DNA from: an uncultured bacterium
GTDB taxonomy: Bacteria; CAZSTA01
Reading direction: 5' to 3'
Length of the DNA: 62,714 nucleotides
NCBI GenBank assembly: GCA_964609495.1
Contig: CAZSTA010000001.1
Coordinates: forward strand, 1-62,714
Numbering within the stretch: position 1 is the first letter of the stretch; the number at the start of each line of letters is the position of its first letter. Made by a program: the position numbers and the translations under genes. The notes beneath the pieces were generated by a model. It searched no databases, was not told where the DNA came from, and saw only the letters and a list, made by a program, of their open reading frames with translations. Positions 758 to 62,714 of the stretch are shown here, one piece after another.

Positions 758-1735
758 TTGACCTTAATGATTAAGAAAATCTATAGACCTAAAGATTTAG
801 CTCAATTCTTAAATGTTACCCCCAGAACAATAATTAACTACGAAAAAGAAGGCAAGATAGAGAAAGCTCAGCGAGATAAGAACAACTGGCGCTACTATAC
901 TTATGAACAGATGAAACGCATCCTTATTCAGTTCGAAAAATGGGAAGAGGAAGCGGCTATCAAGGAGACCAGGGTAATAACTATCGCCAACCTGAAGGGC
1001 GGAACAGCAAAGACCACTACCGCTGTGAACTTAGCAGCTGGGTTGGCCATGATTGGAAACAAAGCTCTCCTAATAGATTTTGATCCCCAAGGCAACGCCA
1101 CCGAGTGCCTAGGTTTTGATCCTCTTTCATTTGAAAAGACTATTAAAGATATTATAGACGATTACGTAACTCTATTTCCTGAAGTTATTATAGATACTGA
1201 TATAGATAATCTGAGCCTGGTACCTGCCAATCTGAACTTCGCTATCGCAGAGGTAATCCTTCCCTCAAGGCATGGCGCAGATTTAGTGCTCAGGCAAAGG
1301 ATTAAACCCCTTCTTGGTGTCTACGATTTCATAGTCATCGACTGTTCACCGCATTTGGGCAAGCTCACGGTGAATGCTATCGTAGCCGCAACTGAGATAA
1401 TAATACCGGTAGAGATGAGCTATCTCTCTGTCAGAGGAATCCAACTTATGATGAACACTATCACCAGTATCAGTGCTGCCCTAGAACTCCGTCTCAGAAA
1501 GATAAGCATCCTTCCCACAAAATTTGATATACGTAATGCTAAAGATAATCAGATGCTGGAATTGCTCAGAAACACCTACAAGGATTCGGTGATGGAAACA
1601 ATAATCCACCAGAACGTTTCCCTCTCAGACAGCCAATCCGAGGGGAAGGTCATCTATCATTCCGTCCCGAACAGTAAAGGAGCAAAGGATTATAGCAAAC
1701 TTGTGGAGGAAGTGATGAAGAATGATAAGAGATAG
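758..1735 (+). CDS. parA: ParA/Soj-family ATPase with N-terminal MerR-type HTH
   Basis: MerR-like YRPKDLAQFLNVTPRTIINYEKEG..RDKNNWRYY, deviant Walker A KGGTAKTT, DFDPQGN, and YDFIVIDCSP. Confidence 0.9.
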   Translation: MTLMIKKIYRPKDLAQFLNVTPRTIINYEKEGKIEKAQRDKNNWRYYTYEQMKRILIQFEKWEEEAAIKETRVITIANLKGGTAKTTTAVNLAAGLAMIGNKALLIDFDPQGNATECLGFDPLSFEKTIKDIIDDYVTLFPEVIIDTDIDNLSLVPANLNFAIAEVILPSRHGADLVLRQRIKPLLGVYDFIVIDCSPHLGKLTVNAIVAATEIIIPVEMSYLSVRGIQLMMNTITSISAALELRLRKISILPTKFDIRNAKDNQMLELLRNTYKDSVMETIIHQNVSLSDSQSEGKVIYHSVPNSKGAKDYSKLVEEVMKNDKR

Positions 1736-2354
1736 AACAGGAAGGGCACAAAGCATAATGAAGAAGGGAAGCGAAGCAATGAAGAAGCTAACACTGGCTT
1801 CTCAGCAATTGCTTACCAAAGAGCTTCCGCCCTGGTATGAACTTACTGAAGGCGAAAAGAAGCTGTGCGAGTTCTTCACCTGCGATCCAGTCCCAGGCTT
1901 ACCAGTTGAGATATTCTCCGATATCGCACCAAGACAGACCAGGATGGAACATATCATCTATTGCCAGCTTTATAGCCTATCCTACCCTTATGGCTACAAG
2001 ATATGTAAAATCGGCTACGGCACTTTGCAGAAGAGATTGCCTTGGTATGATAACTTTATCAAAGGGGAGGCCACGCCCACTTCGCTAAATGGTATTAAGA
2101 AAGCTATACGCCTTCTTCAAAGGAATAATTATATTTTTCGCCTTACCGACAGAATAGGCAATACAGGTAGCTGGTATAGGGTGCTCTCAGTTCACGAGGT
2201 TCTCTCGGAGCGAGGACTTAAAAATAGTTTACTCCAAGACCTTAGTAGTATGCCATTAAGTGGTATACCACTAAGTAGCATGCCACTAAAGGAAATACCC
2301 GAAAAAACAAGAAAAGCGGTAGCTGAATTGTTGGAAGGTTCGACTCTTCCTTAG
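1722..2354 (+). CDS. Hypothetical winged-helix-like DNA-binding protein coupled to parA (partition or replication candidate)
   Basis: Overlaps the parA stop. The segment EHIIYCQLYSLSY..CKIGYGTLQKRL..SLNGIKKAIRLLQRNNYI..GSWYRV resembles Rep-type HTH proteins. No ParB CTPase motif seen. Confidence 0.55.
   Translation: MIRDRTGRAQSIMKKGSEAMKKLTLASQQLLTKELPPWYELTEGEKKLCEFFTCDPVPGLPVEIFSDIAPRQTRMEHIIYCQLYSLSYPYGYKICKIGYGTLQKRLPWYDNFIKGEATPTSLNGIKKAIRLLQRNNYIFRLTDRIGNTGSWYRVLSVHEVLSERGLKNSLLQDLSSMPLSGIPLSSMPLKEIPEKTRKAVAELLEGSTLP
2244..2288 (+). repeat. Three tandem 15-bp palindromic units inside the wHTH gene (iteron or parS-like)
   Basis: AGTAGTATGCCATTA / AGTGGTATACCACTA / AGTAGCATGCCACTA. The central AGTGGTATACCACT is a perfect 14-bp palindrome. 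Confidence 0.85.
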
Positions 2355-2711: not shown

Positions 2712-2748
2712 GCGAATCTCAAAAAATTATAAAGGAGGCTTTAAAGTT

Positions 2749-4656
2749 ATGAGGAGATCATTACTTCTAATAGTCCTGTGTGTAAGCTTAATGTTGGTTA
2801 TTATCCCTACTTCCTTTGCTCAGAAGTATAACGAGGCACCTATGCTGGCAGAATTGGTAAAGGAAGGTAAGCTCCTCCCGGTGGAGGAGAGACTTCCAGA
2901 GGAACCATTCGTGGTAGAGCCGATAGAAGAAGTTGGACGCTACGGAGGAACGTTGCGGTTAGGTATGGTATCGGCTTCTTCTTGGGCTGAAGCTTCACAA
3001 TTTACGATGGAGTATATAATTATGAGGGATCAAAGGGATATGACCAAGTTAGTTCCCAGTATATGTGAGAGCTGGGAATTCTCCAATGAGGGGAAAACCT
3101 TTACTTTGCACTTTAGAAAAGGATTAAAGTGGTCCGATGGCCATCCCTTTACCGCCGATGACATACTCTTCTGGTGGGAAGATGTTATTATGAACGATGA
3201 GCTTAATCCAGTAAAGCCCACCAAATGGAGACCTGGGGGAGAATTGATGAATGTGGAAAAGGTGGATGACTGTACTGTCAATTACCACTTTGCGGTGCCT
3301 TACTATGCGGCGGTTTATCTCTTTGCTCAGGTAGCTGGGCATGGAAGTCAGGGGCAATGTTATATGCCAAAACATGCCCTAACCCAATATCACATAAAAT
3401 ATAACCCCGAAGCTCAGAAACTGGCCGAGGAGGCAGGATATGATACCTGGTGGCAACTATTTCAATATAAAGCACAACCTACAAGCACTGATAGTCAGCA
3501 ACATCCTGACATTCCTGTTATGGGAGCTTGGGCAATAAAGGAACTGCTTCCTGACGGAGCCATATGGGAACGTAACCCCTACTACTTTAAGGTAGATACC
3601 GCAGGAAATCAGCTACCTTATGTCGATCGTCTTAGAGGAGTTATGTTTAGGGATGCTCCTACCCTCCTTATGCTTATGACTACTGGTCAGATAGATTTCA
3701 GTAATGGTTGGGGGACTGGCATAGTTGATTATCCTACCCTTGTAAAAGGTGCGGAAGCGGGGGGATATCAATATCGGTTAGCCAAGGATCTATGGCCTTC
3801 AGCAGGTGTATATCACTTTAACCATAACTATAAGGAGAATCCAGCTTTAACAGAGTTTCTCAGAAACAAGAAATTCAGGCAAGCTCTATCTCTCGCTATC
3901 GATCGAGAGGAGATCGTAAAAGTAGTGGGTCTGGGAAATGGAGTTCCCTATCAAGCTACTTGTAATCCTGATTGCAGTTTCTATGAGGAGCGTTGGTCTA
4001 AAGCCTATACTGAGTATGATCCTGAGAGAGCCAACGCGATGTTGGATGAGATAGGCTTAACCGAGCGGGATGCTGAAGGATATCGCTTATTGCCCAACGG
4101 AGAACCTCTATCGTTAATCGTAGAGCAAACCGAGGATATGGCTTATTGGGTTCCCATAAATGAGCTGGTGAAGGAATACTGGGCAGACGTTGGGATCCGA
4201 GTGATTCCCAAGGTAGTAGAGCGTAGCCTTTACTGGACTCGCCTCGGTGCAGGAGAGATGCAGATTAATCTCTGGGTTTTAGATGCTTTTACGGAATACT
4301 GCCTTATCCCTAACCAAATGTCCAATCTACGAGCTTGGTGGTGGGCTCCCGAATGGTGGGCCTGGTGGGATACAGGAGGAGAATCAGGAGAAGAGCCTCC
4401 AGAAAAAATAAAGGAGATGCTCTCCTTATGTGATCAGATCCCCTCTCTTCCTCCCGAGGAGATGAGGAAGGTAGCCAAGCAGATACTTGATATGGAGGCT
4501 GAGGAGCTTTGGATGGTTGGAACCATAGGCTTCATAGGAAAACCCGCCATAGCGAAGATTGGCCTGGGAAATGTCAACAACGAAGCTCCTGGTGATGCCT
4601 GGGATGTTTGTGGCTCAAGAGCCGCGTGGGTAGAGCAAATATTCTGGAAGGAGTAA
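2749..4656 (+). CDS. ABC transporter substrate-binding protein, family 5 (peptide/oligosaccharide type), copy 1
   Basis: Signal peptide MRRSLLLIVLCVSLMLVIIPTSFA, YNEAPMLAELV..GKLLPVEERLP, and LRKGLKWSDGHPFTADD-like motif. ATG at 2749 follows GGAGG and gives the same length as copy 2. Confidence 0.9.
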   Translation: MRRSLLLIVLCVSLMLVIIPTSFAQKYNEAPMLAELVKEGKLLPVEERLPEEPFVVEPIEEVGRYGGTLRLGMVSASSWAEASQFTMEYIIMRDQRDMTKLVPSICESWEFSNEGKTFTLHFRKGLKWSDGHPFTADDILFWWEDVIMNDELNPVKPTKWRPGGELMNVEKVDDCTVNYHFAVPYYAAVYLFAQVAGHGSQGQCYMPKHALTQYHIKYNPEAQKLAEEAGYDTWWQLFQYKAQPTSTDSQQHPDIPVMGAWAIKELLPDGAIWERNPYYFKVDTAGNQLPYVDRLRGVMFRDAPTLLMLMTTGQIDFSNGWGTGIVDYPTLVKGAEAGGYQYRLAKDLWPSAGVYHFNHNYKENPALTEFLRNKKFRQALSLAIDREEIVKVVGLGNGVPYQATCNPDCSFYEERWSKAYTEYDPERANAMLDEIGLTERDAEGYRLLPNGEPLSLIVEQTEDMAYWVPINELVKEYWADVGIRVIPKVVERSLYWTRLGAGEMQINLWVLDAFTEYCLIPNQMSNLRAWWWAPEWWAWWDTGGESGEEPPEKIKEMLSLCDQIPSLPPEEMRKVAKQILDMEAEELWMVGTIGFIGKPAIAKIGLGNVNNEAPGDAWDVCGSRAAWVEQIFWKE

Positions 4657-6852: not shown

Positions 6853-7851
6853 ATGTCAGTTAAATTGTATATTATCCGGAGACTCTTTTATATGATTGTT
6901 CTCCTTTTTGTGATATCTATTGTAAGCTTTATCATCATTCAACTCCCCCCTGGGGATTATTTGAGCGCTTACATAGCCCAACTAAGGATGAGTGGCCAAA
7001 GGCTTGACGAAGCTCAGATCGCGTCCTTAACAAGACAATACGGTCTTGATTTACCAATTTATCAGCAGTATTTTAAATGGATATGGAACATACTCCGGGG
7101 AAATCTGGGCCGTTCTTTCCAGTGGAACAGACCGGTAGATGAGCTATTAGCTGAACGATTACCGATTACGTTGATTATTTCCTCACTTACCCTGATTTTT
7201 ACCTATGTTATGGCTGTTCCTATCGGGATCTACTCCGCTATACGACAATATTCTATATTTGACTATGCTTTTATCGTTATCGGTTTTATTGGGTTGGCAG
7301 TGCCCAATTTTCTTCTTGCTCTAGTGCTAATGTATCTTTTTTATCGATTTTTTGGAATTAGTCCTATGGGTCTCTTCTCACCTGCTTATGTAGATGCTTC
7401 CTGGAGTATGGCTAAATTTCTAGATATGCTGAGTCATATATGGGTTCCGATAATCGTTATCGGAACTGCTGGGACAGCGGGCATAATCCGGGTTATGAGA
7501 GGCTGTTTATTGGATGAGCTTAATAGACAGTATGTTATAACAGCTAGAGCTAAAGGGGTTTCAGAAAGGAGATTGCTCTTTAAATATCCAGTTAGAATGG
7601 CTATAAACCCTATAATAAGTACCGTAGGTTGGATACTACCGGGGATATTTTCTGGAGGAGCAATCACCGCTATAGTATTACGCTTGCCTACAATAGGGCC
7701 TTTGCTTTTGGATGCATTAATAGTGCAAGATATGTATCTAGCAGGAAGTATCGTACTAATATTATGTTTCTTGACAATAGTAGGAACTTTTATCTCCGAT
7801 ATTCTTTTGGCTTTAGCAGATCCTAGAATTAGATATGAGGCGAGGGAATAA
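6853..7851 (+). CDS. ABC permease, DppB/OppB-like
   Basis: YIIRRL..IIQLPPGDY, YGLDLP..QY.KW, and EAA-like YVITARAKGVSE. Confidence 0.9.
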   Translation: MSVKLYIIRRLFYMIVLLFVISIVSFIIIQLPPGDYLSAYIAQLRMSGQRLDEAQIASLTRQYGLDLPIYQQYFKWIWNILRGNLGRSFQWNRPVDELLAERLPITLIISSLTLIFTYVMAVPIGIYSAIRQYSIFDYAFIVIGFIGLAVPNFLLALVLMYLFYRFFGISPMGLFSPAYVDASWSMAKFLDMLSHIWVPIIVIGTAGTAGIIRVMRGCLLDELNRQYVITARAKGVSERRLLFKYPVRMAINPIISTVGWILPGIFSGGAITAIVLRLPTIGPLLLDALIVQDMYLAGSIVLILCFLTIVGTFISDILLALADPRIRYEARE

Positions 7852-8960
7852 TGGCAACAGGGACGATAGAAATTACCGCGGAAGAGAGAATGTATTTAGC
7901 TTCCCAGTGGGAGCTAATGTGGCGGAAATTTAAGAAGCATAAGTTAGCTATTATAAGTGGAGCGATATTGATTGTCCTCTATATAGTAGCTATCTTCTGT
8001 GAGTTTTTCTCTCCTTATAATCCATATAGACGCTTCGATTATACATACTGTCCCCCCCGAAAACTCCATTTCTTTGATAAGGGAAAGTTTAGTCTTAGAC
8101 CATTTGTCTATGGAATAAAAGAGGAACGGGATAAAGTTAGTTTTCAGATGCTCTATACTGAAGATGAAGATAAAAAGTATCCAATACATTTCTTCGTTCG
8201 AGGTGACAAATATAAGCTTTGGAGTTTATTCAAGATGGATATTCACCTATTTGGGGTAGATGAGGGGGGTTTTATTTCCCTGCTTGGAACGGATAAGTTA
8301 GGAAGAGACCTATTCACCAGGATTCTCACTGGAGCCCGAATATCTCTATCTATAGGATTGGTAGGTGTGTTCTTCAGCTTTATACTAGGTAGCATATTAG
8401 GAGGGATTTCAGGATATTTTGGGGGATCCATCGATATGGTTGTTCAAAGGATCATAGAATTCTTATTATCGATTCCAACGATTCCCTTGTGGATGGCTTT
8501 AAGTGCGGCTTTGCCCCCCGATTGGTCACCTCTTAAGACCTATTTTGGAATCACTATTGTCCTTTCTATTGTGGGTTGGTGCGGTTTAGCTCGGGTAGTT
8601 AGAGGAAAATTTTTGCAAATACGAGTAGAAGATTTTGTTATGGCCGCAAGACTCGGAGGATCGAGTGAGTTCAGGGTAATAATGAGGCATATCCTCCCCA
8701 GTTGTCTGAGTTATCTAATAGTAAGCATTACTTTATCCATCCCTGGGATGATATTAGGAGAAACAAGTTTAAGTTTTCTCGGGCTTGGACTTCGTCCTCC
8801 GGTGGTTAGCTGGGGCGTTCTACTAAAGGATGCCCAAAATCCCCACTCATTATATGTTTATCCCTGGTTGCTCATTCCTGCAATCTTTGTAATTGTTACA
8901 GTATTAGCCTTCAATGGTGTAGGTGATGGCTTACGTGATGCCGCTGATCCTTATAGGTAG
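7851..8960 (+). CDS. ABC permease, DppC/OppC-like
   Basis: LGTDKLGRDLFTRI, FVMAARLGG, RHILP, FLGLGLRPPVVSWG and GDGLRDAADP. Confidence 0.9.
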   Translation: MATGTIEITAEERMYLASQWELMWRKFKKHKLAIISGAILIVLYIVAIFCEFFSPYNPYRRFDYTYCPPRKLHFFDKGKFSLRPFVYGIKEERDKVSFQMLYTEDEDKKYPIHFFVRGDKYKLWSLFKMDIHLFGVDEGGFISLLGTDKLGRDLFTRILTGARISLSIGLVGVFFSFILGSILGGISGYFGGSIDMVVQRIIEFLLSIPTIPLWMALSAALPPDWSPLKTYFGITIVLSIVGWCGLARVVRGKFLQIRVEDFVMAARLGGSSEFRVIMRHILPSCLSYLIVSITLSIPGMILGETSLSFLGLGLRPPVVSWGVLLKDAQNPHSLYVYPWLLIPAIFVIVTVLAFNGVGDGLRDAADPYR

Positions 8961-11215: not shown

Positions 11216-13297
11216 GTGATGGATAAGAAGTGGTTTCAAAGGAGTTATAGGCGTAATTTAGTAGATATGCATATTACTGATTGGGATGAGAAGTTTCTTT
11301 CAGAGTTTGATCCTAAGGCTTATGTGGATCTCCTGGAGTTAGCTCAGGTAAGCGCAGCTATGGTTTATGCTAATTCCCATGTAGGTAATTGCTATTGGCC
11401 TACGAAGGTGGGACATATGCACGAGGGACTAAAGAGGAGAGATATCCTAGGTGAGATCATAGAGCTATGTCACCAAAGAGGGATGGATTTTATAGTCTAT
11501 TATAGTTTGATCTATAACAACTGGGCGTATGAGAATAATCCCCAGTGGAGGATAATCAAAGCAGATGGGAAGGAAGCGGCAGCAAGTAGCCGTTATGGAG
11601 TTTGTTGTCCCAACTCTGGATATCGAGATTTTGCGGTAGCTCAAATAGAGGAGTTCTGCAGTAACTATGATTTTGAGGGAATATTCTTTGATATGACCTT
11701 CTGGCCTCATATCTGCTATTGCTCGTCTTGTCAAGAGAGATACAAGAAGGAGGTAGAAAAGGAGCTTCCTCGGATCGTCGATTGGGAGGATCCTGATTGG
11801 GTGAAGTTCCAGAGGAAACGGGAAGAGTGGTTAACAGAATTTGCCAATCTAGCTACTTCTACCGCAAAGAGGATAAAACCTGAAGTTACGGTAGATCACC
11901 AATTCTCTACCTCTATAGCGGGCTCTGGACGTGGAGTAACTGCAGGGATAGCTAAGGCATGCGATTATACTGGTGGGGATTTCTATGGAGGGCTATTACA
12001 GCAATCCTTCATCTGTAAGTTATTCTATAACCTTACCCCTAACAAGCCCTTTGAATTTCATACCTCTAGATGTCCTAACCTAAGGGATCATACTACAATG
12101 AAATCTGAAGAGCTAATGGAAGCTCATGTATATTCAGGATTAGCAAATAATGGCGCTTTTCTCTTCATTGATGCCATTGATCCCATAGGGACCTTGAATA
12201 AGGATGTCTATGAGATGATGGGGAGGGTCTATGGCGAAACGAAGGCTTATGAGGAATATCTAGGAGGTGAGCTTTGCCAAGACGTAGGGATATATTTCAG
12301 TTTTGCTTCAAAGTTCAACCCCCTAGATAATGGAAAAAATATCTCAGAACTGAAACGTGGCTACTTTAGAGAGCAACCTCATTTAGAAACTTCAGTAAAT
12401 GTAGTTAAGTCTCTTCTGAACGAGAATATTCCCTTCGGAGTGATCACTAAGGAGGATCTAAAGGATCTGTCTAACTATCAGGTAATCGTTCTTCCCAAGG
12501 TCTTAATGATGGATGAAGAGGAAGTGAAGGCTCTTAGAGAATATGTCGCTTCTGGTGGCAGTCTCTATGTAAGTGGATCGGCTTCTCTTCTTGATAAAGA
12601 CGGAAACAAGCAGAAAGATTTTATGCTGGCTGATGTCTTGGGAGTATCATATCTGGGAGAGACGAAGGAGAGATTAACCTATATCGCTCCCACTTCGAAA
12701 GTTGCTGAGCTATTTCCCAATGTCTCCTCCGAGTATCCCCTTACCATCTTCGGACCTCAGATAAAAGCAAAACCAGCTAATGAAGATGAGGTATTAGCTA
12801 CTATCACTCTACCCTATACCGATCCTGTTGATCATACTAAGTTCGCCTCTATTCACTCCAATCCTCCTGGCATTCCTACGGAATATCCTGCTATTGTTAT
12901 GAGGAGCTTCGGTAAGGGTAAGGCGGTATGGGTTGCGGAGGATTTAGAACTGATGAAGTATGATTCCCAGAGGGAGGTATTCACCAACCTGATCAAGTCC
13001 TTAGCTCAGAAACCTTTCTCCTTCGAGTCGGATGCTCCTAAGTCGGTAGAGATAACTCTATTCCATCAGGGGGAGAATAAGAGATATATCATTAACTTCC
13101 TCAACTTTCAGGAGGAGTTGCCCAATATTCCTGTCTCAGGGATTACTTGTAGGGTTAAATTGGAGGGGAGGAAAGCAACTAGGTTAGTGAAGTTACCAGA
13201 GGAGGAAGAGATTCCTTTCGAAGTGAAGGGAAATTACGTTGAGTTTGAGACTCCAGAGCTAGAGACATTCCTGATGTTAGCCTTAAATTATGAATAA
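11216..13297 (+). CDS. GHL6/GH151-like glycoside hydrolase, copy 2
   Basis: Close tandem paralog with ANSHVGNCYWPT. Confidence 0.7.
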   Translation: MMDKKWFQRSYRRNLVDMHITDWDEKFLSEFDPKAYVDLLELAQVSAAMVYANSHVGNCYWPTKVGHMHEGLKRRDILGEIIELCHQRGMDFIVYYSLIYNNWAYENNPQWRIIKADGKEAAASSRYGVCCPNSGYRDFAVAQIEEFCSNYDFEGIFFDMTFWPHICYCSSCQERYKKEVEKELPRIVDWEDPDWVKFQRKREEWLTEFANLATSTAKRIKPEVTVDHQFSTSIAGSGRGVTAGIAKACDYTGGDFYGGLLQQSFICKLFYNLTPNKPFEFHTSRCPNLRDHTTMKSEELMEAHVYSGLANNGAFLFIDAIDPIGTLNKDVYEMMGRVYGETKAYEEYLGGELCQDVGIYFSFASKFNPLDNGKNISELKRGYFREQPHLETSVNVVKSLLNENIPFGVITKEDLKDLSNYQVIVLPKVLMMDEEEVKALREYVASGGSLYVSGSASLLDKDGNKQKDFMLADVLGVSYLGETKERLTYIAPTSKVAELFPNVSSEYPLTIFGPQIKAKPANEDEVLATITLPYTDPVDHTKFASIHSNPPGIPTEYPAIVMRSFGKGKAVWVAEDLELMKYDSQREVFTNLIKSLAQKPFSFESDAPKSVEITLFHQGENKRYIINFLNFQEELPNIPVSGITCRVKLEGRKATRLVKLPEEEEIPFEVKGNYVEFETPELETFLMLALNYE

Positions 13298-28359: not shown

Positions 28360-28598
28360 GTCAACGACCCCGCCCATAAAGGGCGAGGCTTGAAGGACAA
28401 GCCTACGTTGACTAGGGGGCTAACGCTAGTTAGCAAGTAGTTAAGGAGGAGAGATACATACACACCTTGAGATGCTCCTTAAGTCTCAAGCTCTGTGGCT
28501 TGGTGGTTAAACAGTTCTGTGAGGTAGAAACAGTGCTGCCAGGCTTAAAAAACCCTTCTTAACCTCCCCGATGAGGACTAACCCACCGCAAGGTGGAG
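28360..28598 (+). ncRNA. IscB-associated omegaRNA (HEARO-type) scaffold
   Basis: GTCAACGACCCCGCCCATAAAGGGCGAGGCTTG...GTTGACTAG...ACACCTTGAGATGCTCCTTAAGTCTCAAGCTCTGTGG...GGTTAAACAGTTCTG...AACAGTGC follows the order of conserved HEARO/omegaRNA blocks as I recall them. Confidence 0.8.
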
Positions 28599-28898: not shown

Positions 28899-29111
28899 CT
28901 ACACTACAGGATGATAATCTAAGTATTCTAGGGGATGAAGGTAATACTCCTCTTGTCCCCAGGCAGGAAGACGACAGACACATTTCACTAACCTTATCCC
29001 CGTCTCGTTCCCCTCGGAAACTTCTAACCAACCACTATCTTGACAAATAGGACACTTAAAATCCTTATGCCCTTCAATCTCAGAAGTTAAAGCTAAATTT
29101 CCCTTAATCAT
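28899..29111 (-). CDS. Small Zn-ribbon protein (CPIC.DSGW...KCVC), divergent from rep
   Basis: GAGGTG RBS. Four cysteines arranged as in the N-terminal Zn finger of phage DnaC/IstB-like loaders, but with no ATPase domain. Confidence 0.55.
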   Translation of the reverse strand: MIKGNLALTSEIEGHKDFKCPICQDSGWLEVSEGNETGIRLVKCVCRLPAWGQEEYYLHPLEYLDYHPVV

Positions 29112-29398
29112 TTTTGGTCACCTCTTAATTTCATTATACCTAATTAATCCTATTTGTTCAAATCCGCTAGGTTGATATAGGAGAAGATTAGAAACCTAAA
29201 AGATCGCTGAACATCTTTTTTCATCCAAAATCTTATAAATCGCTCATTTTAATCGAACAAATGTTCAGTTATATTAACTTCGGTAGACTCCTGGTGAGTG
29301 TGAAGGGGAAAAAGATAATTGGAAGGGAATGAAAAAATCATCACAAGGGGCGATATCATCTTATCCTCAGCGATGTTATCTAAGTTTATAGATAAGTA

Positions 29399-29427
29399 TT
29401 GACAATTATATCCTAGAGTGATATAAT
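29399..29427 (+). promoter_or_regulatory. Consensus sigma70 promoter of the rep-like gene
   Basis: TTGACA-17 bp-TATAAT with extended TG, giving a leader of about 200 nt to the ATG at 29640. Confidence 0.8.
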
Positions 29428-29639: not shown

Positions 29640-31838
29640 ATGTCTAAGAAGAGAGATAAAGAGAGGAAACAAGAGATAAAAGATAAGCTGACAGACGGAC
29701 AAATCGAGATACAGCCATTTTATCATGATTTGAGAAATGAGATAGTTCAGCCCAGAAATATAATTGTTGAAACCAAATATTTCTGGGACAAATGGAAGCC
29801 TCGCTTAGGACCAACCTTGACGGTAATAATAATGGAACTAAGAAGAAGATGCTATTACAATCCTGAGACTGGTGAGAGGAGAGATTACTGCTGGCCATCC
29901 TTGCAGACTATAGCCGATGCTTGTGGAATTAGTGTTAGCACATTACAGCGGGAGTTGAAGAGACCAGAAGCAAAGCTGTTCATCAGGATAGAACCAAGAT
30001 ATATCTATAATGAGAAGATTAGTCGCATGAGCAGAACCAGTAACATTTATTATGTGGCAATGGACGATCCACTACTTCCAGAGGACAAGGATAGATTGAA
30101 GGATGAGATAGCTGAACAGATAATCGAAAAGGAAGGACTGCAAAGAGATTTTGAACTAGACACAAAAGATCAGTCAGAGAAAGACTCTGGACATAAAGGT
30201 CAATTTGATGATCATATAGCCTGGTCAATTTGCACAAGTAAGAGATCCTTAGAAGAGATCCCAGAATCGTTAAACGATGCAGGATCATCCAACGCTGATA
30301 AGAGTCAAGAAAGGAATAAAGGAAGGGAACATCCCTACTCAGATAACAATAGGATAAGTGATATCTCTACCCAGACTCTAAATAAGGAGAATGAAGAATC
30401 TAGCAGAACAAAAGACATAGATCCATTAGTAGATATAGTGGCCCATGAAATAGCTGAGGAGCTAAGAGATATTGAGAGTATCAACTTCTACCGATTAGTT
30501 GTGTTAAAATGCCCAACCGGTATGATATATAAGATATTAGCACAGGTGAAAGATGCTGAGAGAGTAGGGGCAATAAAGACTACCCCAGCAAGACTGTTCA
30601 CAGCAGCTATCAAGAATGCAGCAAAAGAAGCTGGTATTGATCTAACAAGTAAGATAAAGTTTAAGAGACGAAGGGAATGGGGACCTAAGGCTAAGAAACC
30701 ATGGAGATTGGCCAGTGAGCTAGCAGAGGAATTAGACGACATAAAGGGAATGGCATATTACAATAAAGTAGCGAAGGAATGTCCAGTAAGAATGCTCCGA
30801 TGGTGTTTAGAGGAGGTAAAGAGACAAGGCAGGACAGTAGAGAATAAGGGAGCATTATTCAACTTCCTAGTTAAGAGGGAAATGAATGCTTTAGAGAGTA
30901 AGAAACAAGAAGAGGGAAAGATGATTAGCCCAGAGGATTTACATATAAGGATAGTTGAGTTAAAGAAACAATTAGGAAAAGAAGATGTGATAACAATAGA
31001 AAAGCCGAGAGCAATAGATAAAGTTGAGCAAGAAGAACAGAGAAGGGATGTGAAGCCGAGGCTAGGAGTGGATAACCCGGAAGATGATGATCCCGAAACC
31101 GTTGCCCAACTAGTGAGGGAAAGCTTAGGGCTGAGCGAGGAAGAATACGAAGCCGAAAAGGCGAAGGCTTTGGCAGGAAAGAGTTTAGCAGTTGAGGAGA
31201 TTACTGAAATTTGTGAAGGAGATTGTGATGAGGGGGCTTTTCTCACTGCTAAGGAAGAGATGATAGCTGAAGATATAGCCAAGACGTTAGGTGATTATCA
31301 TTCGTGGGGTTTCTTTCATTTGGTAGTAAGATACTGCCCTTCCGATATGATATATCGCAATTTGGGACTGGTTAAGGAAGAGCAGAATATCAAGCGAAAT
31401 AGGGGGGCAATGTTCACCTATCTGATAAAGAAGGATGCGGCAGAGTTGGGCATTGATCTATCAGGAAAGGACAATCCCGAACCCAGAGAGTGGGGCGAGC
31501 CTGTAGATGAACCGAAGGAGATAGCAAGAATATTGGCGAAGAAGCTTGATGATCCAGAGGCCCTCGCTTTCTATCACAAAGCCGCAAAGTTGTGTCCTCT
31601 AAAGATGCTACGCTGGGCTTACTTTGAGACGATGCAGTGTGGAAGAAGAGTCAAAAACAAGGCTGCCTATTTCAACCGCCTACTTCTGTTCAAGATGAAA
31701 CAGGCTGGAGCTGACTTTGTGGGCGGTGTGACTATCAAGGAGGCAGAAAAACGGAGACGGGAAGGAGAGAAGCCACCTAGCGACAAGGCTTTGGTGGCTT
31801 TCTTGGAAGAACTGAGAAAGGTTTCTGGGAAAATTTAG
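29640..31838 (+). CDS. Putative replication initiator: N-terminal wHTH plus four repeats of a ~65-aa helical domain
   Basis: YCWPSLQTIADACGISVSTLQRELK..FI..RTSNIYY is typical of Rep HTH domains. Repeated units A..lA..L.D....fy..v...CP..M......vk......n.ga.F. GGAGGTG RBS region. Confidence 0.65.
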   Translation: MSKKRDKERKQEIKDKLTDGQIEIQPFYHDLRNEIVQPRNIIVETKYFWDKWKPRLGPTLTVIIMELRRRCYYNPETGERRDYCWPSLQTIADACGISVSTLQRELKRPEAKLFIRIEPRYIYNEKISRMSRTSNIYYVAMDDPLLPEDKDRLKDEIAEQIIEKEGLQRDFELDTKDQSEKDSGHKGQFDDHIAWSICTSKRSLEEIPESLNDAGSSNADKSQERNKGREHPYSDNNRISDISTQTLNKENEESSRTKDIDPLVDIVAHEIAEELRDIESINFYRLVVLKCPTGMIYKILAQVKDAERVGAIKTTPARLFTAAIKNAAKEAGIDLTSKIKFKRRREWGPKAKKPWRLASELAEELDDIKGMAYYNKVAKECPVRMLRWCLEEVKRQGRTVENKGALFNFLVKREMNALESKKQEEGKMISPEDLHIRIVELKKQLGKEDVITIEKPRAIDKVEQEEQRRDVKPRLGVDNPEDDDPETVAQLVRESLGLSEEEYEAEKAKALAGKSLAVEEITEICEGDCDEGAFLTAKEEMIAEDIAKTLGDYHSWGFFHLVVRYCPSDMIYRNLGLVKEEQNIKRNRGAMFTYLIKKDAAELGIDLSGKDNPEPREWGEPVDEPKEIARILAKKLDDPEALAFYHKAAKLCPLKMLRWAYFETMQCGRRVKNKAAYFNRLLLFKMKQAGADFVGGVTIKEAEKRRREGEKPPSDKALVAFLEELRKVSGKI

Positions 31839-31937: not shown

Positions 31938-32158
31938 TTGACTGTATCCCTCCCCCCAGTAGTAATTATTATATAAAGCAAAATAGGGTTAATGATAGGC
32001 GAATAGAGCGTAATGTTTAAAAAAATAAACTATGAGCGAAGTGTAATCCTGCAATACTCTTTGATTCCCTCTAAGATATATATGGTAAGAAATTGTTGTA
32101 TCAAAAGTGAAGAGGAACCAGGATAAGATCCGAGCTCGATCTTGATTTATACACCTAT

Positions 32159-32187
32159 ATTTTAACCTATTATGATAGGTTTGTCAA
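32159..32187 (-). promoter_or_regulatory. Leftward sigma70 promoter with a palindromic operator in its spacer
   Basis: Minus strand TTGACA-17 bp-TAAAAT. The region 32164-32181 is AACCTAT-tatg-ATAGGTT. Confidence 0.65.
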
Positions 32188-32296
32188 GCAATTTAAAAAT
32201 TTTTTTGATCTCTTAAAAAAGGTCTTAAATTATTTGAGGAAATATGTTATAATATATACATAGTGAATATATTATTGGGAACGTTAGGGAGGAGAT

Positions 32297-32890
32297 ATGC
32301 TCCATTCAGAAGGACCTTTCGGAAGCAGAATTAGGCAGCTTCGGATAGCTAGAGGGCTCTCTCAGAGAAGTGCGGCTGAGAGGTTAGGTATCTCAAGCGG
32401 TTATATGAGTCAGTTGGAAGCTGATCTTTATAGACCCTCCTATGATATAATTAGAAAAATAGCTTCTTTTTACTATGTTCCAATTGAGGAACTTCTATCT
32501 CTCGCTGGCTATGAGATAGACGAGGTGCAGCTTAAGGAGGCTCAAGGTAGATTTTACTCTTATCCTCAAGATGTGGATCTTGATTATATGATCGAGACCT
32601 TAAGATATATCTCTGATGATAAACTCTCTTCTCACAACAAGAAGATGCTAGAGGATTTTCTATTGGTAATGAGAGAGAAACAAAAGATGGAAAGTTCTCT
32701 AGAGCATCATGGAGAGAGAGACACATTATACACTTATAAGCGGTCTCCGTCGAATATTATCGAGAGAGGGATAAACTTGATCTTGAGTTCGTTGCCTGAG
32801 GAAGGACGAAAGATGGCTGAAGTGACTATAAAAGCTTTAGTAGAAGGATTAAAAGAGGAGAAAGGAGGCGGGCTTCTTAGCCAAAGCTAG
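32297..32890 (+). CDS. XRE-family HTH transcriptional regulator
   Basis: FGSRIRQLRIARGLSQRSAAERLGISSGYMSQLE. Confidence 0.88.
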   Translation: MLHSEGPFGSRIRQLRIARGLSQRSAAERLGISSGYMSQLEADLYRPSYDIIRKIASFYYVPIEELLSLAGYEIDEVQLKEAQGRFYSYPQDVDLDYMIETLRYISDDKLSSHNKKMLEDFLLVMREKQKMESSLEHHGERDTLYTYKRSPSNIIERGINLILSSLPEEGRKMAEVTIKALVEGLKEEKGGGLLSQS

Positions 32891-33051
32891 AAGCCATTTT
32901 GTCTCTGCTTTCTGTGCCATCGATCTCCCAGCGGAGTGGTAAGAGAGATATAGTAAAGGAGGGGAGATGAGTAAGAGATCATATACAGTCTAGCTTTAGC
33001 TTCAATTTAGAGGGTTAATTTTTGACAGAGCCTGAATTAGAGGAAGGGAAA

Positions 33052-33939
33052 ATGCAAAGAAATATTTCTCTATTATTAATTCTAATAGCTTTTCTCAGTT
33101 TTGTAAGTCTCACTCATGGAGAATCGTCCGCTGAGATCAAGGTAGTCGCTACCATATTTCCTTTAGCAGATCTCGCTAAAAATGTGGGAGGATATAGAGT
33201 TGAGGTAATAACCTTACTTCCGCCTGGAGCGAGTCCTCATACCTTCGATCCCACTCCTAAACAAGTGGAAAAGTTAGCGGAAGCTCATCTCTTAGTCCAA
33301 ATTGGGGCTGGATTAGATGATTGGGCGGCGAAACTGGTCAAAACTGCGGCTAATCCCGATTTAGTTATAATTAAGACTTCAGAGAAAATAGAGCTTATAG
33401 AAGATGAAGAACATCACACTCACACTGGAGGAAATCCGCATATCTGGTTAGACCCTATCATTGCAAAGAAGATAGTATCCAATATCGGTGAAGCATTAAA
33501 GAAGATCGATCCTCAATATACTTCCTATTACGGGGAGAATACGGAGAAATATCTAGCCGAGTTGGATAGATTAGATCAAGAGATAAAAGAAGGGATATCC
33601 AAATTCAAGATAGAGGATTTCGTCTCCTTTCATTCCGCTTTCATTTACTTTGCTAAACGCTATGGATTGAATCAAGCTGCGGTTATTGAGGAATTTCCAG
33701 GCAAAGAGCCGACTCCTAAGTACCTTGCTGAGATATTAAATGTTATAAGGGATACCGGGGTTAAGGCGGTTTTTGCTGAACCACAGCTAAATTCTAAAGT
33801 TGCCGAGGTTGTGGCAAACGAGAGTGGAGTCGAGCTACTCTTCCTAGACCCTCTAGGTGAGCCCGAAACCCCAGAGAGAAATACATATCTAAAGTTGATA
33901 CGCTATAATGTCAGTGTAATGGAGCAGGCTATGAAGTAA
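33052..33939 (+). CDS. znuA: Zn/Mn ABC substrate-binding protein
   Basis: LPPGASPHTFDP, NPHIWLDP, FHSAF.YF and EP. ATG at 33052 gives a signal peptide. Confidence 0.88.
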   Translation: MQRNISLLLILIAFLSFVSLTHGESSAEIKVVATIFPLADLAKNVGGYRVEVITLLPPGASPHTFDPTPKQVEKLAEAHLLVQIGAGLDDWAAKLVKTAANPDLVIIKTSEKIELIEDEEHHTHTGGNPHIWLDPIIAKKIVSNIGEALKKIDPQYTSYYGENTEKYLAELDRLDQEIKEGISKFKIEDFVSFHSAFIYFAKRYGLNQAAVIEEFPGKEPTPKYLAEILNVIRDTGVKAVFAEPQLNSKVAEVVANESGVELLFLDPLGEPETPERNTYLKLIRYNVSVMEQAMK

Positions 33940-34028
33940 CCTTATACTCTTCCTAAAACTAATCCCCAGCTCCTTTCCTCTTAACTTCGATTGATATCTC
34001 GAAGATCATTAAAGTGAGAGAATGAATT

Positions 34029-34823
34029 ATGAATAATTCAAATTTAATATTAGAGCTAAAAGATATATGGGTATACTTCGACAGTAAAGTTATTCTCAAG
34101 GATATAAATTTAGAGCTAGAAAGAGGTAAATTTCTGGGCATTATCGGCCCAAATGGAGCAGGTAAGACCACCCTCCTAAAGACTATATTAGGGATAATTA
34201 ATCCAGATAGAGGGATAGTTAAGTTATTCTCTTGCCCGGATCTCTCTGATAAAGATCCCCATCATCTAATAGGATATGTCCCCCAAAATTCCTTGATTGA
34301 CCAAAATTTCCCTCTCTCGGTTTTCGATGTAGTTATGATGGGACGCTACGGAAGGATGGGGTTTTTCCATTATCCAGATAAGAGAGACAGAGAATTAGTG
34401 TGGCAAAGTTTAGAGAGAGTAAGTATGCAAGATTACGCTAGTCGACAGATAGGACAACTCTCGGGAGGGCAACAGCAAAGGATCTTTATCGCCAGAGCCC
34501 TAGCTGGCGAACCGTGCTTACTGATCCTAGATGAACCTACTGCAGGAATTGATACAGTTGCTCAGGATCAATTTTATAAATTGCTTCGTACCCTTAAAGA
34601 GGAGCTTTCCCTAAGTGTGATAATGGTTTCCCATGACATAGTAGTTCTCCCCTCCTACGCTGATGAGTTAGCCTGCCTTAATCAAACTATCTGCTTGCAT
34701 GGTAAACCCCAAGATGTTGTAAGGGAAGATATGCTGAGAGATCTGTATGGTTCTCAAGTAGATATGATAATCCACAAAGGAAAACCCCCTTATATAAAAG
34801 TAGTAGATGGGCATAATGTTTGA
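34029..34823 (+). CDS. znuC: Zn/Mn ABC ATP-binding protein
   Basis: GPNGAGKTT, GYVPQ, LSGGQQQR and LDEPT. Confidence 0.88.
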   Translation: MNNSNLILELKDIWVYFDSKVILKDINLELERGKFLGIIGPNGAGKTTLLKTILGIINPDRGIVKLFSCPDLSDKDPHHLIGYVPQNSLIDQNFPLSVFDVVMMGRYGRMGFFHYPDKRDRELVWQSLERVSMQDYASRQIGQLSGGQQQRIFIARALAGEPCLLILDEPTAGIDTVAQDQFYKLLRTLKEELSLSVIMVSHDIVVLPSYADELACLNQTICLHGKPQDVVREDMLRDLYGSQVDMIIHKGKPPYIKVVDGHNV

Positions 34824-35652
34824 GATGTTATCCTTAGGCTTTATGCAAAGGGCTTTAGCCGCTGGAATAATCATAAGTATAACATGTGCGGTTATCTCTG
34901 TCTTTGTCATCCTCAAGAGGTTAGCCTTCATAGGTCAAGGGATATCTCACTCCGCGCTGGGCGGAGTTGCCCTCGGGGTCCTATTAGGGATAAACTTGAC
35001 TTTATCAGCCGCTTTCTTCTCCATAGCGGTGGCTTGGGGAATTGGCATGGTAAGCAGAAGGGGAAGAATCAGTGAGGATACAACTATCGGGATATTTATG
35101 ACCACTGCTATGGCTCTAGGAGTAATGCTAATAAATCTATACAAGGGATATAGCGTCGATTTGATGACCTATCTCTTCGGGAACATTTTAGCTGTAACCT
35201 CCGTTGATCTTTGGTCCATCGGAATATTAGGATTAGGGGTGATAACCACGATAGTCCTTTTCTTCAAGGAATTTCTCCTCATCAGCTTTGACGAAGAATT
35301 GGCTCAAGTAAATGGATTACCAGTTCCTTTCTTATACTACTTAATGCTTACCTTAATGGCTATAACCATAATCATTTCTATCAAGATCGTGGGTATTGTC
35401 TTATTATCTGCCCTCCTAGTAATCCCCGGGGCTACTGGCTATCAACTCACTTATAACTATCGACCTATGCTCTTCATCTCGCTAGCGGTTGGAATTACAT
35501 CATCCATCTTAGGATTGGTTCTCTCCTATCAACTTGATCTCCCTTCTGGAGCTACTATAGTATTGCTAGCTGCTGCTATATTTACCTTCTCTCTTATCCT
35601 CTCCCCCAAGAGAAGAAGAATGAAAAGAGATAAAATTTCCTCTGGCAATTAA
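34816..35652 (+). CDS. znuB: Zn/Mn ABC permease
   Basis: MQRALAAG, ISHSALGGVA, YLFGNIL and LPSGATIV. The start is 34807 or 34816. Confidence 0.88.
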   Translation: MFEMLSLGFMQRALAAGIIISITCAVISVFVILKRLAFIGQGISHSALGGVALGVLLGINLTLSAAFFSIAVAWGIGMVSRRGRISEDTTIGIFMTTAMALGVMLINLYKGYSVDLMTYLFGNILAVTSVDLWSIGILGLGVITTIVLFFKEFLLISFDEELAQVNGLPVPFLYYLMLTLMAITIIISIKIVGIVLLSALLVIPGATGYQLTYNYRPMLFISLAVGITSSILGLVLSYQLDLPSGATIVLLAAAIFTFSLILSPKRRRMKRDKISSGN

Positions 35653-35766
35653 TTTCATCGGCTCGGTGGAAGATAGAGTTATAACTGAAGCTTTCTTTGT
35701 TTTAGGAGCCTGATAGCATCAAAACACCGAACCCGTACCTCCTATAGTTTGGATGCCTTATCCTAT

Positions 35767-35810
35767 AGTAGTAGGCCACTTAGTAGTATACCACTTAGTG
35801 GTACACTACT
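35767..35810. repeat. Three 14-bp palindromic units with 15-bp period, intergenic, same family as 2244-2288
   Basis: AGTAGTAGGCCACT-T-AGTAGTATACCACT-T-AGTGGTACACTACT. Confidence 0.85.
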
Positions 35811-36070
35811 ATAACTTCTTATCCTATTCCTCCCAGAATCTCTATTTCCTACTTCTCTCAATCCTTCTATCCCAAGGCCACTGATTACCTCTTTTCCTTA
35901 CAGTACCTAAGTTTAAGCCGTTATTCCGTGATTAGTCCTATAGCCTAATGATCTTTGTCTTATTAATATGGCTATCGAAGATTTTTCCTCTGCTTCCTAA
36001 CTGTAGAGGATGAGGCATGATACTCCGATTAGAAGTTCAGAAACCATCAGGAGATTAGGAGCAGATCACT

Positions 36071-60029: not shown

Positions 60030-60971
60030 TCAGTATTTCCTATCTGGTAGCACCTGTCCAGTTCGCTTAATACTATTTAGAGCCTTCTCAAAACGGCGCA
60101 GAGCCACTCCAACAAATAGGGCATCGACTATCGCTAATTGAGCAATACGAGAGGCCATCGCCTCATCCCGAAAGGTAGTCTCCCTAGAAGTAGTGAAAAG
60201 CTTTATATCGGAGACTTGAATAATGGGCGACTTGGAGTAATTAGTTATACAAATAGTAGTTGCCCCAGCCTCATGAGCTAGACGCATAGCCTCCACCGTG
60301 TCCTTAGAGCTTCCTGAGTGAGAGATACCTAATCCTACATCCCTTTTCCTCATAAGAGAGGCTGACATAGCTTGAGTGCCGGCATCACGATAGACTATGC
60401 AAGGCAAACCTATCCTGATAAATCTATATTCCGCATCCAGAGCGATAGGTAAAGAGTTACCTACTGCGAATAACTCTATACGGCGACAGGAGGAGATAGC
60501 CTCCACTGCCCTCTCCATCTCCTCCGGATCGATGATCCTCTCAGTATCATATAGGGCTTGAATATCAGCCCGAAAAACTTTATCGATAACTTGGACTATG
60601 CTATCACCCTGCTCTATATCCTGATGTATCTGATGCACAGGGGTTACCAGATCGCGAGCCAAAGTTATTTTTAGCTCATGATATCCACTATATCCTAGAT
60701 TCTGGCAGAATCTAACTACGGTAGATTCGCTAACCTCACTTTCTTCCGCTACCTCTGTTATGGAAAGATGAATAATGGCTTCAGGATTATTTAAGATGAA
60801 CTCAGCTACTCGTTGCTCCGCAGGGAATAGAGATGGCAATATCCCCTTAATCCTAGCCAAGCATCCTCTTAGCTCTCGCGGATTCCATAGATTTCTACTA
60901 GCTTTTTCACGTGTATCATCTCTATCCAGAGCTCGTTTAGAGTGATCCTGATTTTCTGTCTTTTCCTTCAT
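60030..60971 (-). CDS. RpiR/MurR-family regulator (HTH + SIS)
   Basis: SITEVAE..VSESTVVRFC..LGYSGY, ISHSGSS and SRIAQLAIVD. Confidence 0.92.
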   Translation of the reverse strand: MKEKTENQDHSKRALDRDDTREKASRNLWNPRELRGCLARIKGILPSLFPAEQRVAEFILNNPEAIIHLSITEVAEESEVSESTVVRFCQNLGYSGYHELKITLARDLVTPVHQIHQDIEQGDSIVQVIDKVFRADIQALYDTERIIDPEEMERAVEAISSCRRIELFAVGNSLPIALDAEYRFIRIGLPCIVYRDAGTQAMSASLMRKRDVGLGISHSGSSKDTVEAMRLAHEAGATTICITNYSKSPIIQVSDIKLFTTSRETTFRDEAMASRIAQLAIVDALFVGVALRRFEKALNSIKRTGQVLPDRKY

Positions 60972-61155: not shown

Positions 61156-61608
61156 TTAAATGAAAGGATTTATGACATCCAACAATCCATATTTCTCGAA
61201 ATGAGAGGTATCCTCGGTATATACTAACCTTATCCCATTATCCAACATAGTTGCTATAAGATAGACATCGAAGGTGTTTTCTCTCCTCACACCGAAATGT
61301 CTCATTAACTCTACTGTCCTGAATATAGTATTAGCGATAGGATATATTTTAGCTATACCGCGGGAGTTAAGATAGATCTCTACCTCTCTCAACGCCTGCT
61401 GAGGGGTTAAGGGATTCTTCAGCTTCCGAGGATTAGTTACCACCGAATAGAACTCCAAGATGTTCTGAGGAGAGATACAAGCTGGAAGCTCTCCCCTACT
61501 AGCTCTATCTCTTAGTTCTCTCGCTTCATCATAGTGAGGAGAGAGTGTGTCATGAGCATATACTAGAATATTGGTATCTAATAACCCCGCCTCAGATGAG
61601 GTCCTCAT
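61156..61608 (-). CDS. vapC: PIN-domain (VapC-like) toxin
   Basis: LLDTNILVYA, EFY.VVT and FD..L.AT. Confidence 0.85.
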   Translation of the reverse strand: MRTSSEAGLLDTNILVYAHDTLSPHYDEARELRDRASRGELPACISPQNILEFYSVVTNPRKLKNPLTPQQALREVEIYLNSRGIAKIYPIANTIFRTVELMRHFGVRRENTFDVYLIATMLDNGIRLVYTEDTSHFEKYGLLDVINPFI

Positions 61609-61861: not shown

Positions 61862-62340
61862 GCTTACACCTCATCAAACTGAGCATAGTGTTCACTTAAT
61901 TATCTCATAACTGCTCATAATTGTCAACCCCTCATATAGAAAAATGTCTAATTCCCTGCTATTCTATTTTGCATATATGGACATATATGCAGTGTCACAT
62001 ATTTTCTCTATTCAACTATGATCTTGACAACCGCTCTATATCAGATATAATATAGATGCGATTGTCTCTATCCGATGGCGACCACAGGGATTGGAATTAT
62101 GGAACTCAGTTTCCACTGCTATCTCATCATAAGTAAACTGAGGTTTCCCCTAATTGTTGGACAGAGATTCAGGGACTTTAAGGTGAACACTATCGAATAT
62201 AACATGCTTATCCCTTTCAGATACTTTCGCCAGATCATCCCCTAGCAAGGCCTCTCTTGGAAATATTACAGCCCCATGTTAGACAGCCTCGTGATAACTG
62301 ACAGTGTTCCTTTAAGGTGGAAACCAGTGCTTTAGCATAC

Positions 62341-62714
62341 TCAGCTCCTATTCATATAGACCTGTAAAGGTGTACGGTATCCAAGGGCTTGGTGAAATCT
62401 CTCAGTGTTGTAGAAACTGAATTAATTGCCTAATCCTCTCATAGCTTCAATCATGTCCTCATAGTCGTTCAGATATACCTCCTCATATTTCACACTGCGC
62501 CATAGGCGCTCAACGAAAATGTTGTCCCACAAACGACCATCCCAACTGATACGAATGCCTGCGCTCTCCAATCGCTCTGTGAAAGCCTGACTGATGAATT
62601 GATTTCCCCGATCGCTATTGAATATCTCTGATTTCTCCTTCCTGAGAGCCTCCTCCAGGGCAGTCAAACAAAAGAACGTGTCCAGGGAATTGGATACCTC
62701 CCAAGAGACAACAT
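62341..62714 (-). pseudogene. IS3-family transposase (integrase core) remnant, running off the window end
   Basis: VVSWEVSNSLDTFFCLTALEEAL..IFNSDRGNQF..DNIFVERLWRSVKYE, then an in-frame TAA at 62422-62424 before FSFYNTERFHQALGYRTP. Confidence 0.85.

Follow-up and report, generated by a model that had tools for sequence, protein, structure and literature searches.

The window analysed here is the whole 62,714-nt stretch of contig CAZSTA010000001.1 (assembly GCA_964609495.1) from an uncultured bacterium, and our subject is a rep-like open reading frame (ORF) of 732 amino acids (aa) near its middle. We favour, with moderate confidence, the reading that this ORF encodes a modular replication initiator of a type found in plasmids, phages or integrative elements, with tail modules that would dock a host replication factor. 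Behind an N-terminal winged-helix domain the protein carries four repeats of ~70 aa that form two units, AB and CD, of two domains each, and the gene is, judging by sequence comparison, a fusion of related initiators, with the 5' 1.43 kb taken from one and the 3' 0.77 kb from the other.

An earlier note on this DNA, made from the letters alone, had placed four repeats in the protein, and mutual alignment, BLASTP and a scan with an outside profile all found them in those positions (Table 1). The profile, a hidden Markov model built from 70 outside proteins, detected exactly four domains in the protein (aa 265–337, 356–422, 537–608 and 626–692), and none of 500 shuffles of the same protein scored above 4.3 bits. 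Since a profile made from unrelated proteins finds all four copies, the repeat is a real family. Eight columns are invariant in the four copies (A, A, L, D, C, P, M and F), in agreement with the motif lA..L.D....fy..v...CP..M and closing F that had been read from them. The proposed pairing of A with C and of B with D was likewise borne out (41% and 39% identity, against 23–29% between the A type and the B type, and 20–31% for type 1 against type 2 in the unit-by-unit comparison), and GIDL...REWG is seen, after translation, at both type 1/type 2 junctions. When compared by BLASTP, the AB half (aa 241–440) and the CD half (aa 501–732) were 42% identical over 151 aa (E 1e-35), and the off-register pair A–D reached an E-value of 8e-5. 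The full-length AlphaFold2 model of the protein, built from a 98-row alignment, repeats a four-helix pattern four times (A 262–330, B 354–426, C 537–602, D 625–694), and repeat C modelled on its own from an 80-sequence alignment has four helices with a pLDDT of 94.5 and a pTM of 0.84.

Table 1. Features of the rep-like gene and its surroundings, in window positions (aa, residues of the rep-like protein)
Feature	Position	Strand	Basis
70-aa zinc-ribbon-like ORF (CPxC...CxC)	28899..29111	-	DNA match to P0039 locus; no Pfam family
Promoter-like site TTGACA, 17 nt, TATAAT with upstream TG	29399..29427	+	Pattern match only, 12/12 consensus
Rep-like ORF, 732 aa	29640..31838	+	ORF list
N-terminal winged-helix initiator-type domain, aa 46-181	29775..30182	+	HTH_36, PHROG, AlphaFold2
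Acidic disordered linker 1, aa 182-261	30183..30422	+	Net charge -6; pLDDT <50 for aa 186-256
Repeat A, type 1 four-helix module ending GIDL, aa 262-337	30423..30650	+	84.3 bits, outside profile
Repeat B, type 2 module, aa 354-426	30699..30917	+	62.8 bits, outside profile
Linker 2, aa 427-536	30918..31247	+	Net charge -14; part disordered, part helical (AlphaFold2); holds fusion junction
Fusion breakpoint, aa 475-477	31062..31070	+	BLASTP against P0003 and P0039
Repeat C, type 1 module ending GIDL, aa 537-608	31248..31463	+	82.5 bits, outside profile
Repeat D, type 2 module, aa 625-694	31512..31721	+	43.6 bits, outside profile
Helical basic tail, aa 695-732	31722..31835	+	Alignment, common to P0039; helices 699-707 and 715-729 (AlphaFold2)
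XRE-type helix-turn-helix regulator, 197 aa, next gene downstream	32297..32890	+	HTH_31/HTH_3

The fusion is apparent from the relatives of the two halves. Residues 1–475 of the window protein matched residues 9–516 of protein P0003 by BLASTP with 66% identity, residues 477–731 matched residues 265–515 of P0039 with 72%, and DNA homology to the P0039 gene begins at 31,095 (74.7% over 742 nt). Unit by unit, A and B are 67% and 74% identical to the first and second units of P0003, and C and D are 78% and 77% identical to those of P0039. Because AB is thus nearer to P0003, and CD nearer to P0039, than AB is to CD, and because the breakpoint is clean, the gene is best read as a fusion of two diverged cassettes. 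P0003 and P0038 share the N-domain of the window protein and have A and B behind it, but end in a 45-aa tail of another kind. In P0039 a Phage_rep_O N-domain, which includes a zinc ribbon, is followed by linker, C, D and tail as in the window protein, and P0040 carries an AB-type pair after a zinc-ribbon-containing N-terminal region with no Pfam match. Upstream of the gene, window positions 28,899–29,265 are 78.7% identical over 375 nt to positions 11,580–11,953 of the P0039 contig (L005), a match that takes in ~150 bp beyond the zinc-ribbon-like ORF. This ORF accompanies rep genes of the present kind: the L005 segment holds a 72-aa gene immediately 3' of the P0039 rep gene, and contigs L006 and L007 have that gene as well. 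P0039-type DNA therefore stands on both sides of the chimera, in keeping with a recombination event that involved two related rep loci. We also observed a second small tail module (..KYINDWxYVDxLIQxHxEEEL..) in place of CD in P0003, P0038 and P0040 (contigs L008 and L011), with two copies in P0040, which points to further cassette shuffling among these initiators.

Halves that match different genes from other samples, and meet at a sharp breakpoint, could also have been produced by an assembly that joined two different rep genes. We consider this highly improbable: the frame is continuous, and a contig from another sample (L010, JGI 3300024433) spans aa 267–732 of the same gene, junction included, with 94% protein and 96.6% DNA identity, no indels and a dN/dS of 0.30 over 1398 nt. 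The presence of the chimera in this independent contig argues that the fusion is not an assembly artefact. The internal duplication put forward in the earlier note holds as remote history, but not as a recent event in this gene, whose halves match P0003 and P0039; a recent duplication in place is thus not the source of the four copies. Similarity between AB and CD is no longer recognisable at the DNA level, so the duplication that separates them is old. In the history that we reconstruct, a single module was long ago duplicated into a type 1 and type 2 pair joined by GIDL...REWG, this pair diverged in two initiator lineages, and much later recombination joined the N-domain and AB of one gene to the linker, CD and tail of a second.

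Outside this protein the module is common and nearly always single. When the repeat profile was run against 1.84 billion cluster representatives, 631 proteins were found at E<=1e-3. The survey of repeat number that the earlier note had called for gave one copy in nearly all of the best 150; these proteins range from 62 to ~430 aa, and the longer ones carry it close to the C-terminus. More than one copy was found in only a handful of representatives, and the four-module chimera occurs in the cluster of this protein only. The consensus reads LAxxLAxxLxDxxSxxFYRxVAxxxPxxxIxxaLsEVKxxxxxgxIkkskGAxFTxLIKrxAkexGIxL, with an acidic helix 1, a basic H3–H4 region (IKKS+GAxFTxLIK) and a mean net charge of +3.8 over the family alignment. 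We scanned the 66 members of at least 200 aa against Pfam: their N-domains were HTH_36 (32), RPA (Replication initiator protein A, 13), Phage_rep_O (8), DnaD_N (4), TrfA (3), Rep3_N (3) and RP-C (2), besides generic winged-helix-turn-helix (wHTH) models, and no family in that scan covers the module itself. With at least seven initiator-type N-domains found ahead of it, the module is therefore a promiscuous one, attached as a tail to replication initiators of many families. The window-type N-domain is itself found with a single module: in a scan of species-representative genomes this combination occurred in proteins of 313–366 aa from Thermodesulfobacteriota, Ignavibacteriales and Acidobacteriota metagenome-assembled genomes and from two such genomes of unassigned phylum.

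Searches of named and solved proteins returned little. A word-indexed homology search with the repeat profile gave only 10 unnamed small proteins, the cluster look-up named one cluster only ('replication initiator protein A'), and a bioRxiv paper on plasmid initiator phylogeny mentions neither HTH_36 nor the tail module. The single-repeat model (pLDDT 94.5) had no Foldseek match in the PDB (best E 3.4, TM-score <=0.34), and PDB sequences searched by hmmsearch with the family profile yielded chance matches only (E >=0.13). A search of BFVD with the module yielded one probable relative, an uncharacterised 87-aa phage protein (TM-score 0.69) that is uninformative on function.

The earlier note had suggested that the repeats may be DnaD/DnaB_2-like, a membership that we rejected on the results of Pfam, Foldseek, a motif check and hhalign. 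PF07261 was not matched by the whole rep-like protein in the Pfam scan at E-values up to 1, nor by its relatives. Foldseek with the repeat C model returned no DnaD entry although both 8ojj (full-length Bacillus subtilis DnaD) and 2zc2 (a DnaD-like C-domain) were in the searched PDB copy, the sensitivity of such a search being limited for a 70-aa helical domain. We collected 44 PF07261 proteins and aligned 20 of them; hhalign of the module profile against this DDBH2 alignment gave a probability of 1.2%. The defining motif of DDBH2 is YxxxIxxxW (PMC2978336), and the 80-sequence module alignment has no conserved W or Y...I...W, its last conserved helix being GAxFTxLIK. The module is thus not detectably DnaD/DnaB_2-like.

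The N-terminal part of the protein is of initiator type. HTH_36 was the only match in the Pfam scan (aa 82–108, 26.1 bits against a cut-off of 25), and the NCBIfam scan gave nothing useful. Residues 40–227 matched eight PHROG families, among them 26369, 270, 8102 and 391, whose annotation is either 'replication initiation protein' or 'replication initiation O-like'; the E-values run from 5e-9 to 2.5e-3. The AlphaFold2 model of aa 46–181 shows a helix-turn-helix, a beta-hairpin wing and a long C-terminal helix, with pLDDT mostly above 90. In a Foldseek search with the full-length model only this N-terminal wHTH was matched, with weak E-values (0.15–1); the list is headed by archaeal and bacterial wHTH regulators and TFE/TFIIE, and includes the RepA_N structures 4pt7, 4pql and 5kbj, the DnaD N-domain 2v79 and pPS10 RepA (1hkq). 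The domain is conserved in 37 proteins and forms a separate HTH_36 subfamily (PFYHD...MDDPL). By tblastn the rep-like protein had no match in phage genomes and one weak N-domain match among plasmids, in a Leptolinea plasmid, where it is annotated as hypothetical. The order described in the earlier note, a helix-turn-helix followed by an acidic linker, was recovered in full, the linker carrying negative charge and being modelled as disordered, and its 'Rep-like' label is upheld by HTH_36, the eight PHROG initiation families and a repeat that is the tail module of initiators from many families. The start codon lies ~210 nt 3' of the sigma-70-like promoter match, and an AGGAG Shine-Dalgarno sequence stands 9 nt 5' of the ATG.

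The comparisons above show the domain anatomy, the spread of the family, the chimeric origin and the plasmid settings of relatives, and they show a protein with the build of a plasmid or phage initiator. In the mechanism that we favour, the winged-helix N-domain would be the origin-binding part, joined to the tail by the disordered acidic linker, and the tail module, which is normally single and C-terminal, would be the effector end that docks a conserved host replication factor. The likeliest partners would be the replicative helicase or its loader, primase, or DnaA, and four copies would allow multivalent or dual-specificity docking. The roles suggested in the earlier note, oligomerisation and contact with ssDNA or a helicase loader, are plausible. 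We infer recruitment because a module that combines with so many unrelated origin-binding domains, and does so across many phyla, points to a universal partner, and because Chloroflexota paralogues with the same N-domain carry a DnaA_N-like domain at the C-terminus instead. Domain I of DnaA is its helicase- and adaptor-binding domain, in line with recruitment as the task of whichever domain stands there. The RepA protein of pSK41, in which a helical C-terminal domain binds DnaG and the N- and C-terminal domains are exchangeable, offers an analogue that points the same way. More tentatively, the module could be a hitherto unrecognised, phylum-spanning adaptor by which unrelated initiators (HTH_36, RPA, lambda-O-like, TrfA, Rep_3, DnaD_N) capture the same part of the host replisome, in which case the type pair and its doubling might load two helicases or serve two host specificities.

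The genomic surroundings of relatives agree with an initiator of mobile elements, linkage to partition or transfer genes being present in L005, L012, L013/L014 and L023. The genes of P0074 (RPA N-domain) and P0055 (HTH_36) are each preceded immediately by a ParA gene and a small gene; their contigs (L012 and L013/L014, respectively) are 13–17 kb long and have Replic_Relax and coupling-protein (TrwB/TraG-type) matches. The two P0055 contigs come from related samples and their gene orders are circularly permuted, as expected for a small circular plasmid; they probably represent a circular plasmid of ~13 kb, which would lend itself to simple tests of the module. Their genes encode ParA, a ribbon-helix-helix-like protein, a rep protein with one module, Replic_Relax, a faint TrwB/TraG match, RadC, an integrase and a methyltransferase. 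The P0039 gene lies 3 kb from a ParA gene and near a PIN toxin-antitoxin pair, and one gene that joins the window-type N-domain to a single module, located inside an 854-kb contig, has Replic_Relax, a RuvC-like gene and a type I restriction subunit as neighbours. On L005 we also noted, at 7580–8695, a 371-aa protein with weak matches to DNA_primase_S (E 1.8e-4) and PriCT_1 (E 1.3e-3); it precedes the P0039 rep gene by 1.3 kb, and an HTH_17 gene lies in the interval.

The chromosomal paralogues of Chloroflexota (P0004–P0037) have an N-domain 42–56% identical to that of the window protein. In many of them the C-terminus is a DnaA_N-like domain (PF11638; a precomputed match in several, a weak one in others), the match being present in P0005 and P0019, and the window protein has no PF11638 match in the Pfam scan. 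Against the module these paralogues gave at most a faint match (E 1e-4 to 1e-2). The genes of P0019 and P0020 (contigs L001–L003, 170–364 kb) share a conserved housekeeping synteny of serS, MerR, N-domain gene, dcd and thyX, and this combination of N-domain and DnaA_N-like domain may be a chromosomal replication accessory protein. The idea of a DnaD-like middle region in these paralogues was unsupported by Pfam and was dropped.

Several observations weigh against a docking initiator that is active in this genome. At the level of the module, the basic H3–H4 face and acidic H1 would equally suit DNA binding, and the PDB and BFVD searches gave it no solved or characterised relative. The modules could then be DNA-binding or oligomerisation domains, working on single-stranded DNA at the unwound region or in origin pairing and not as docks for a host protein, with four copies widening the DNA footprint. 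The acidic helix 1, basic H3–H4 and positive mean charge of the family, together with the +9 of repeat D, are consistent with such a role, and the DDBH2 domain of DnaD, which has the same acidic-then-basic layout and is in tandem in B. subtilis DnaB, binds DNA (PMC2978336). We nevertheless think it unlikely, as repeats A, B and C have net charges of 0, +1 and -1, the module model shows no likeness to any DNA-binding fold in Foldseek, and hhalign found no homology between module and DDBH2.

The other points concern the locus. Around the rep-like gene lie genes for glycoside hydrolases and dehydrogenases and for a zinc ABC transporter, and neither a helicase gene nor one for a primase, relaxase or integrase adjoins it. 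A distance of 28 kb separates it from the nearest ParA-type gene (758–1735), and no direct-repeat family or tandem array beyond chance was found in 27.9–33.1 kb, a search that degenerate or distant sites would escape. Gene orientation and GC skew around 34–36 kb have the look of convergence; the cumulative skew peaks at ~32000–36000 with the polarity of a terminus, or of plain gene-strand bias, and not that of an origin. With sugar-metabolism and zinc-uptake genes on its flanks, the window copy may be a remnant, and the fullest form of this reading is that the gene is a decaying or domesticated leftover of an integrated element, at most a winged-helix transcription regulator whose tail has no current role. 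The chromosome-like setting, in which partition, transfer and integrase genes are not adjacent and iterons were not found around the gene, speaks for it, as do an orphan HEARO RNA and insertion sequence (IS) remnants that suggest a junkyard region. The 2.2-kb frame is, however, intact and preceded by a consensus promoter-like site, and the chimera has been kept in a second sample without indels and with the low dN/dS given above, so we judge a remnant to be quite unlikely. On the initiator reading, this copy might still act in replication.

As for the rest of the window, all non-nested ORFs of at least 110 aa are on the forward strand up to 35.6 kb and mostly on the reverse strand beyond, which puts the point of strand convergence within 2–4 kb of the rep-like gene. 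The downstream order rep, XRE, ..., ZnuA is also found in L010, where an IS605 OrfB helix-turn-helix fragment and a PIN gene (2743–4138), absent from the window, lie between the XRE gene and znuA. The ParA-type ATPase at 758–1735 (+) has a fused N-terminal MerR helix-turn-helix and is 39% identical to the ParA beside P0039; it is followed at 1722–2354 (+) by a 210-aa ORF with no Pfam match, and the two look like a partition-type gene pair. As no housekeeping gene was seen in 62 kb, the window might come from a secondary replicon. A HEARO RNA, the omega RNA associated with IscB (Rfam RF02033), is present in full length ~1 kb upstream of the rep-like gene, at 28360–28582 (+), and scores 126.8 bits against a gathering score of 83. 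No IscB-sized ORF adjoins this RNA, so it has the look of an orphan. At its right end (62139–62714) the window is 92.8% identical at the DNA level to L005 5826–6408, a stretch that overlaps the rve-type transposase gene of that contig. The RpiR protein encoded at 60030–60971 is 50% identical to the RpiR of L005, and in both places RpiR has a PIN gene as neighbour (61156–61608 in the window), although the two PIN proteins have no BLASTP match to each other at E<=1e-3.

The handover from initiator to replisome in plasmids and phages is understood for only a few model systems. Here a compact module is identified that counts 631 cluster representatives and lacks both a Pfam entry and a solved structure; it stands at the effector end of initiators belonging to at least seven N-terminal families in many phyla. 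Its partner, once found, would explain how many uncultured mobile elements recruit helicase or primase and would better the annotation of their rep genes, and the chimera, with its four copies, offers a natural experiment on the dosage of modules and their shuffling.

We agree with the earlier note that the architecture is unlike that of characterised initiators. The closest layout is that of the RepA_N initiators (pSK41 and pTZ2162 RepA), which have, like the window protein, a winged-helix N-terminal domain, a linker and a small all-helical C-terminal part, and whose structures 4pt7, 4pql and 5kbj are among the weak fold matches of its N-domain. In pSK41 RepA the wHTH domain, the dispensable linker and the DnaG-binding helical C-terminal domain, a host-specific effector, are separable; in pPR9 a pfam13730 N-terminal domain sits on the pSK41 C-terminal domain and the plasmid still replicates, N- and C-terminal domains having been shuffled between genes (PMC5703833). 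Unlike RepA_N proteins, the window protein has no RepA_N Pfam match, its module has four helices against the five-helix DnaD-like C-terminal domain of RepA and is unrelated to it by every test run, it carries four module copies against one C-terminal domain, and no origin was found in or beside its gene. DnaD and B. subtilis DnaB resemble it in having a winged-helix N-domain followed by one or two small helical domains with an acidic first and a basic last part. DnaD is DDBH1-DDBH2 and B. subtilis DnaB is DDBH1-(DDBH2)2, which is a precedent for tandem copies of a tail domain (PMC2978336), but the module is not a member of that family, as the PF07261, hhalign, 8ojj/2zc2 and motif comparisons indicate.

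Among initiators of the lambda O type (Phage_rep_O) and other iteron initiators (RPA, TrfA and Rep_3), some members carry the same module at the C-terminus, and P0039, the donor of the CD half, has a Phage_rep_O N-domain. The C-terminal part of lambda O recruits the helicase loader. The window protein differs from these families in its N-domain, a separate HTH_36 subfamily, and in them the module is unannotated. The Chloroflexota paralogues share the succession of N-domain, low-complexity linker and small C-terminal domains, but many end in the DnaA_N-like domain and their match to the module is at most faint. A modular winged-helix initiator with an exchangeable tail is thus already known; what is new is a widespread, unannotated tail module, its pairing as type 1 and type 2, and a chimera in which four modules stand together.

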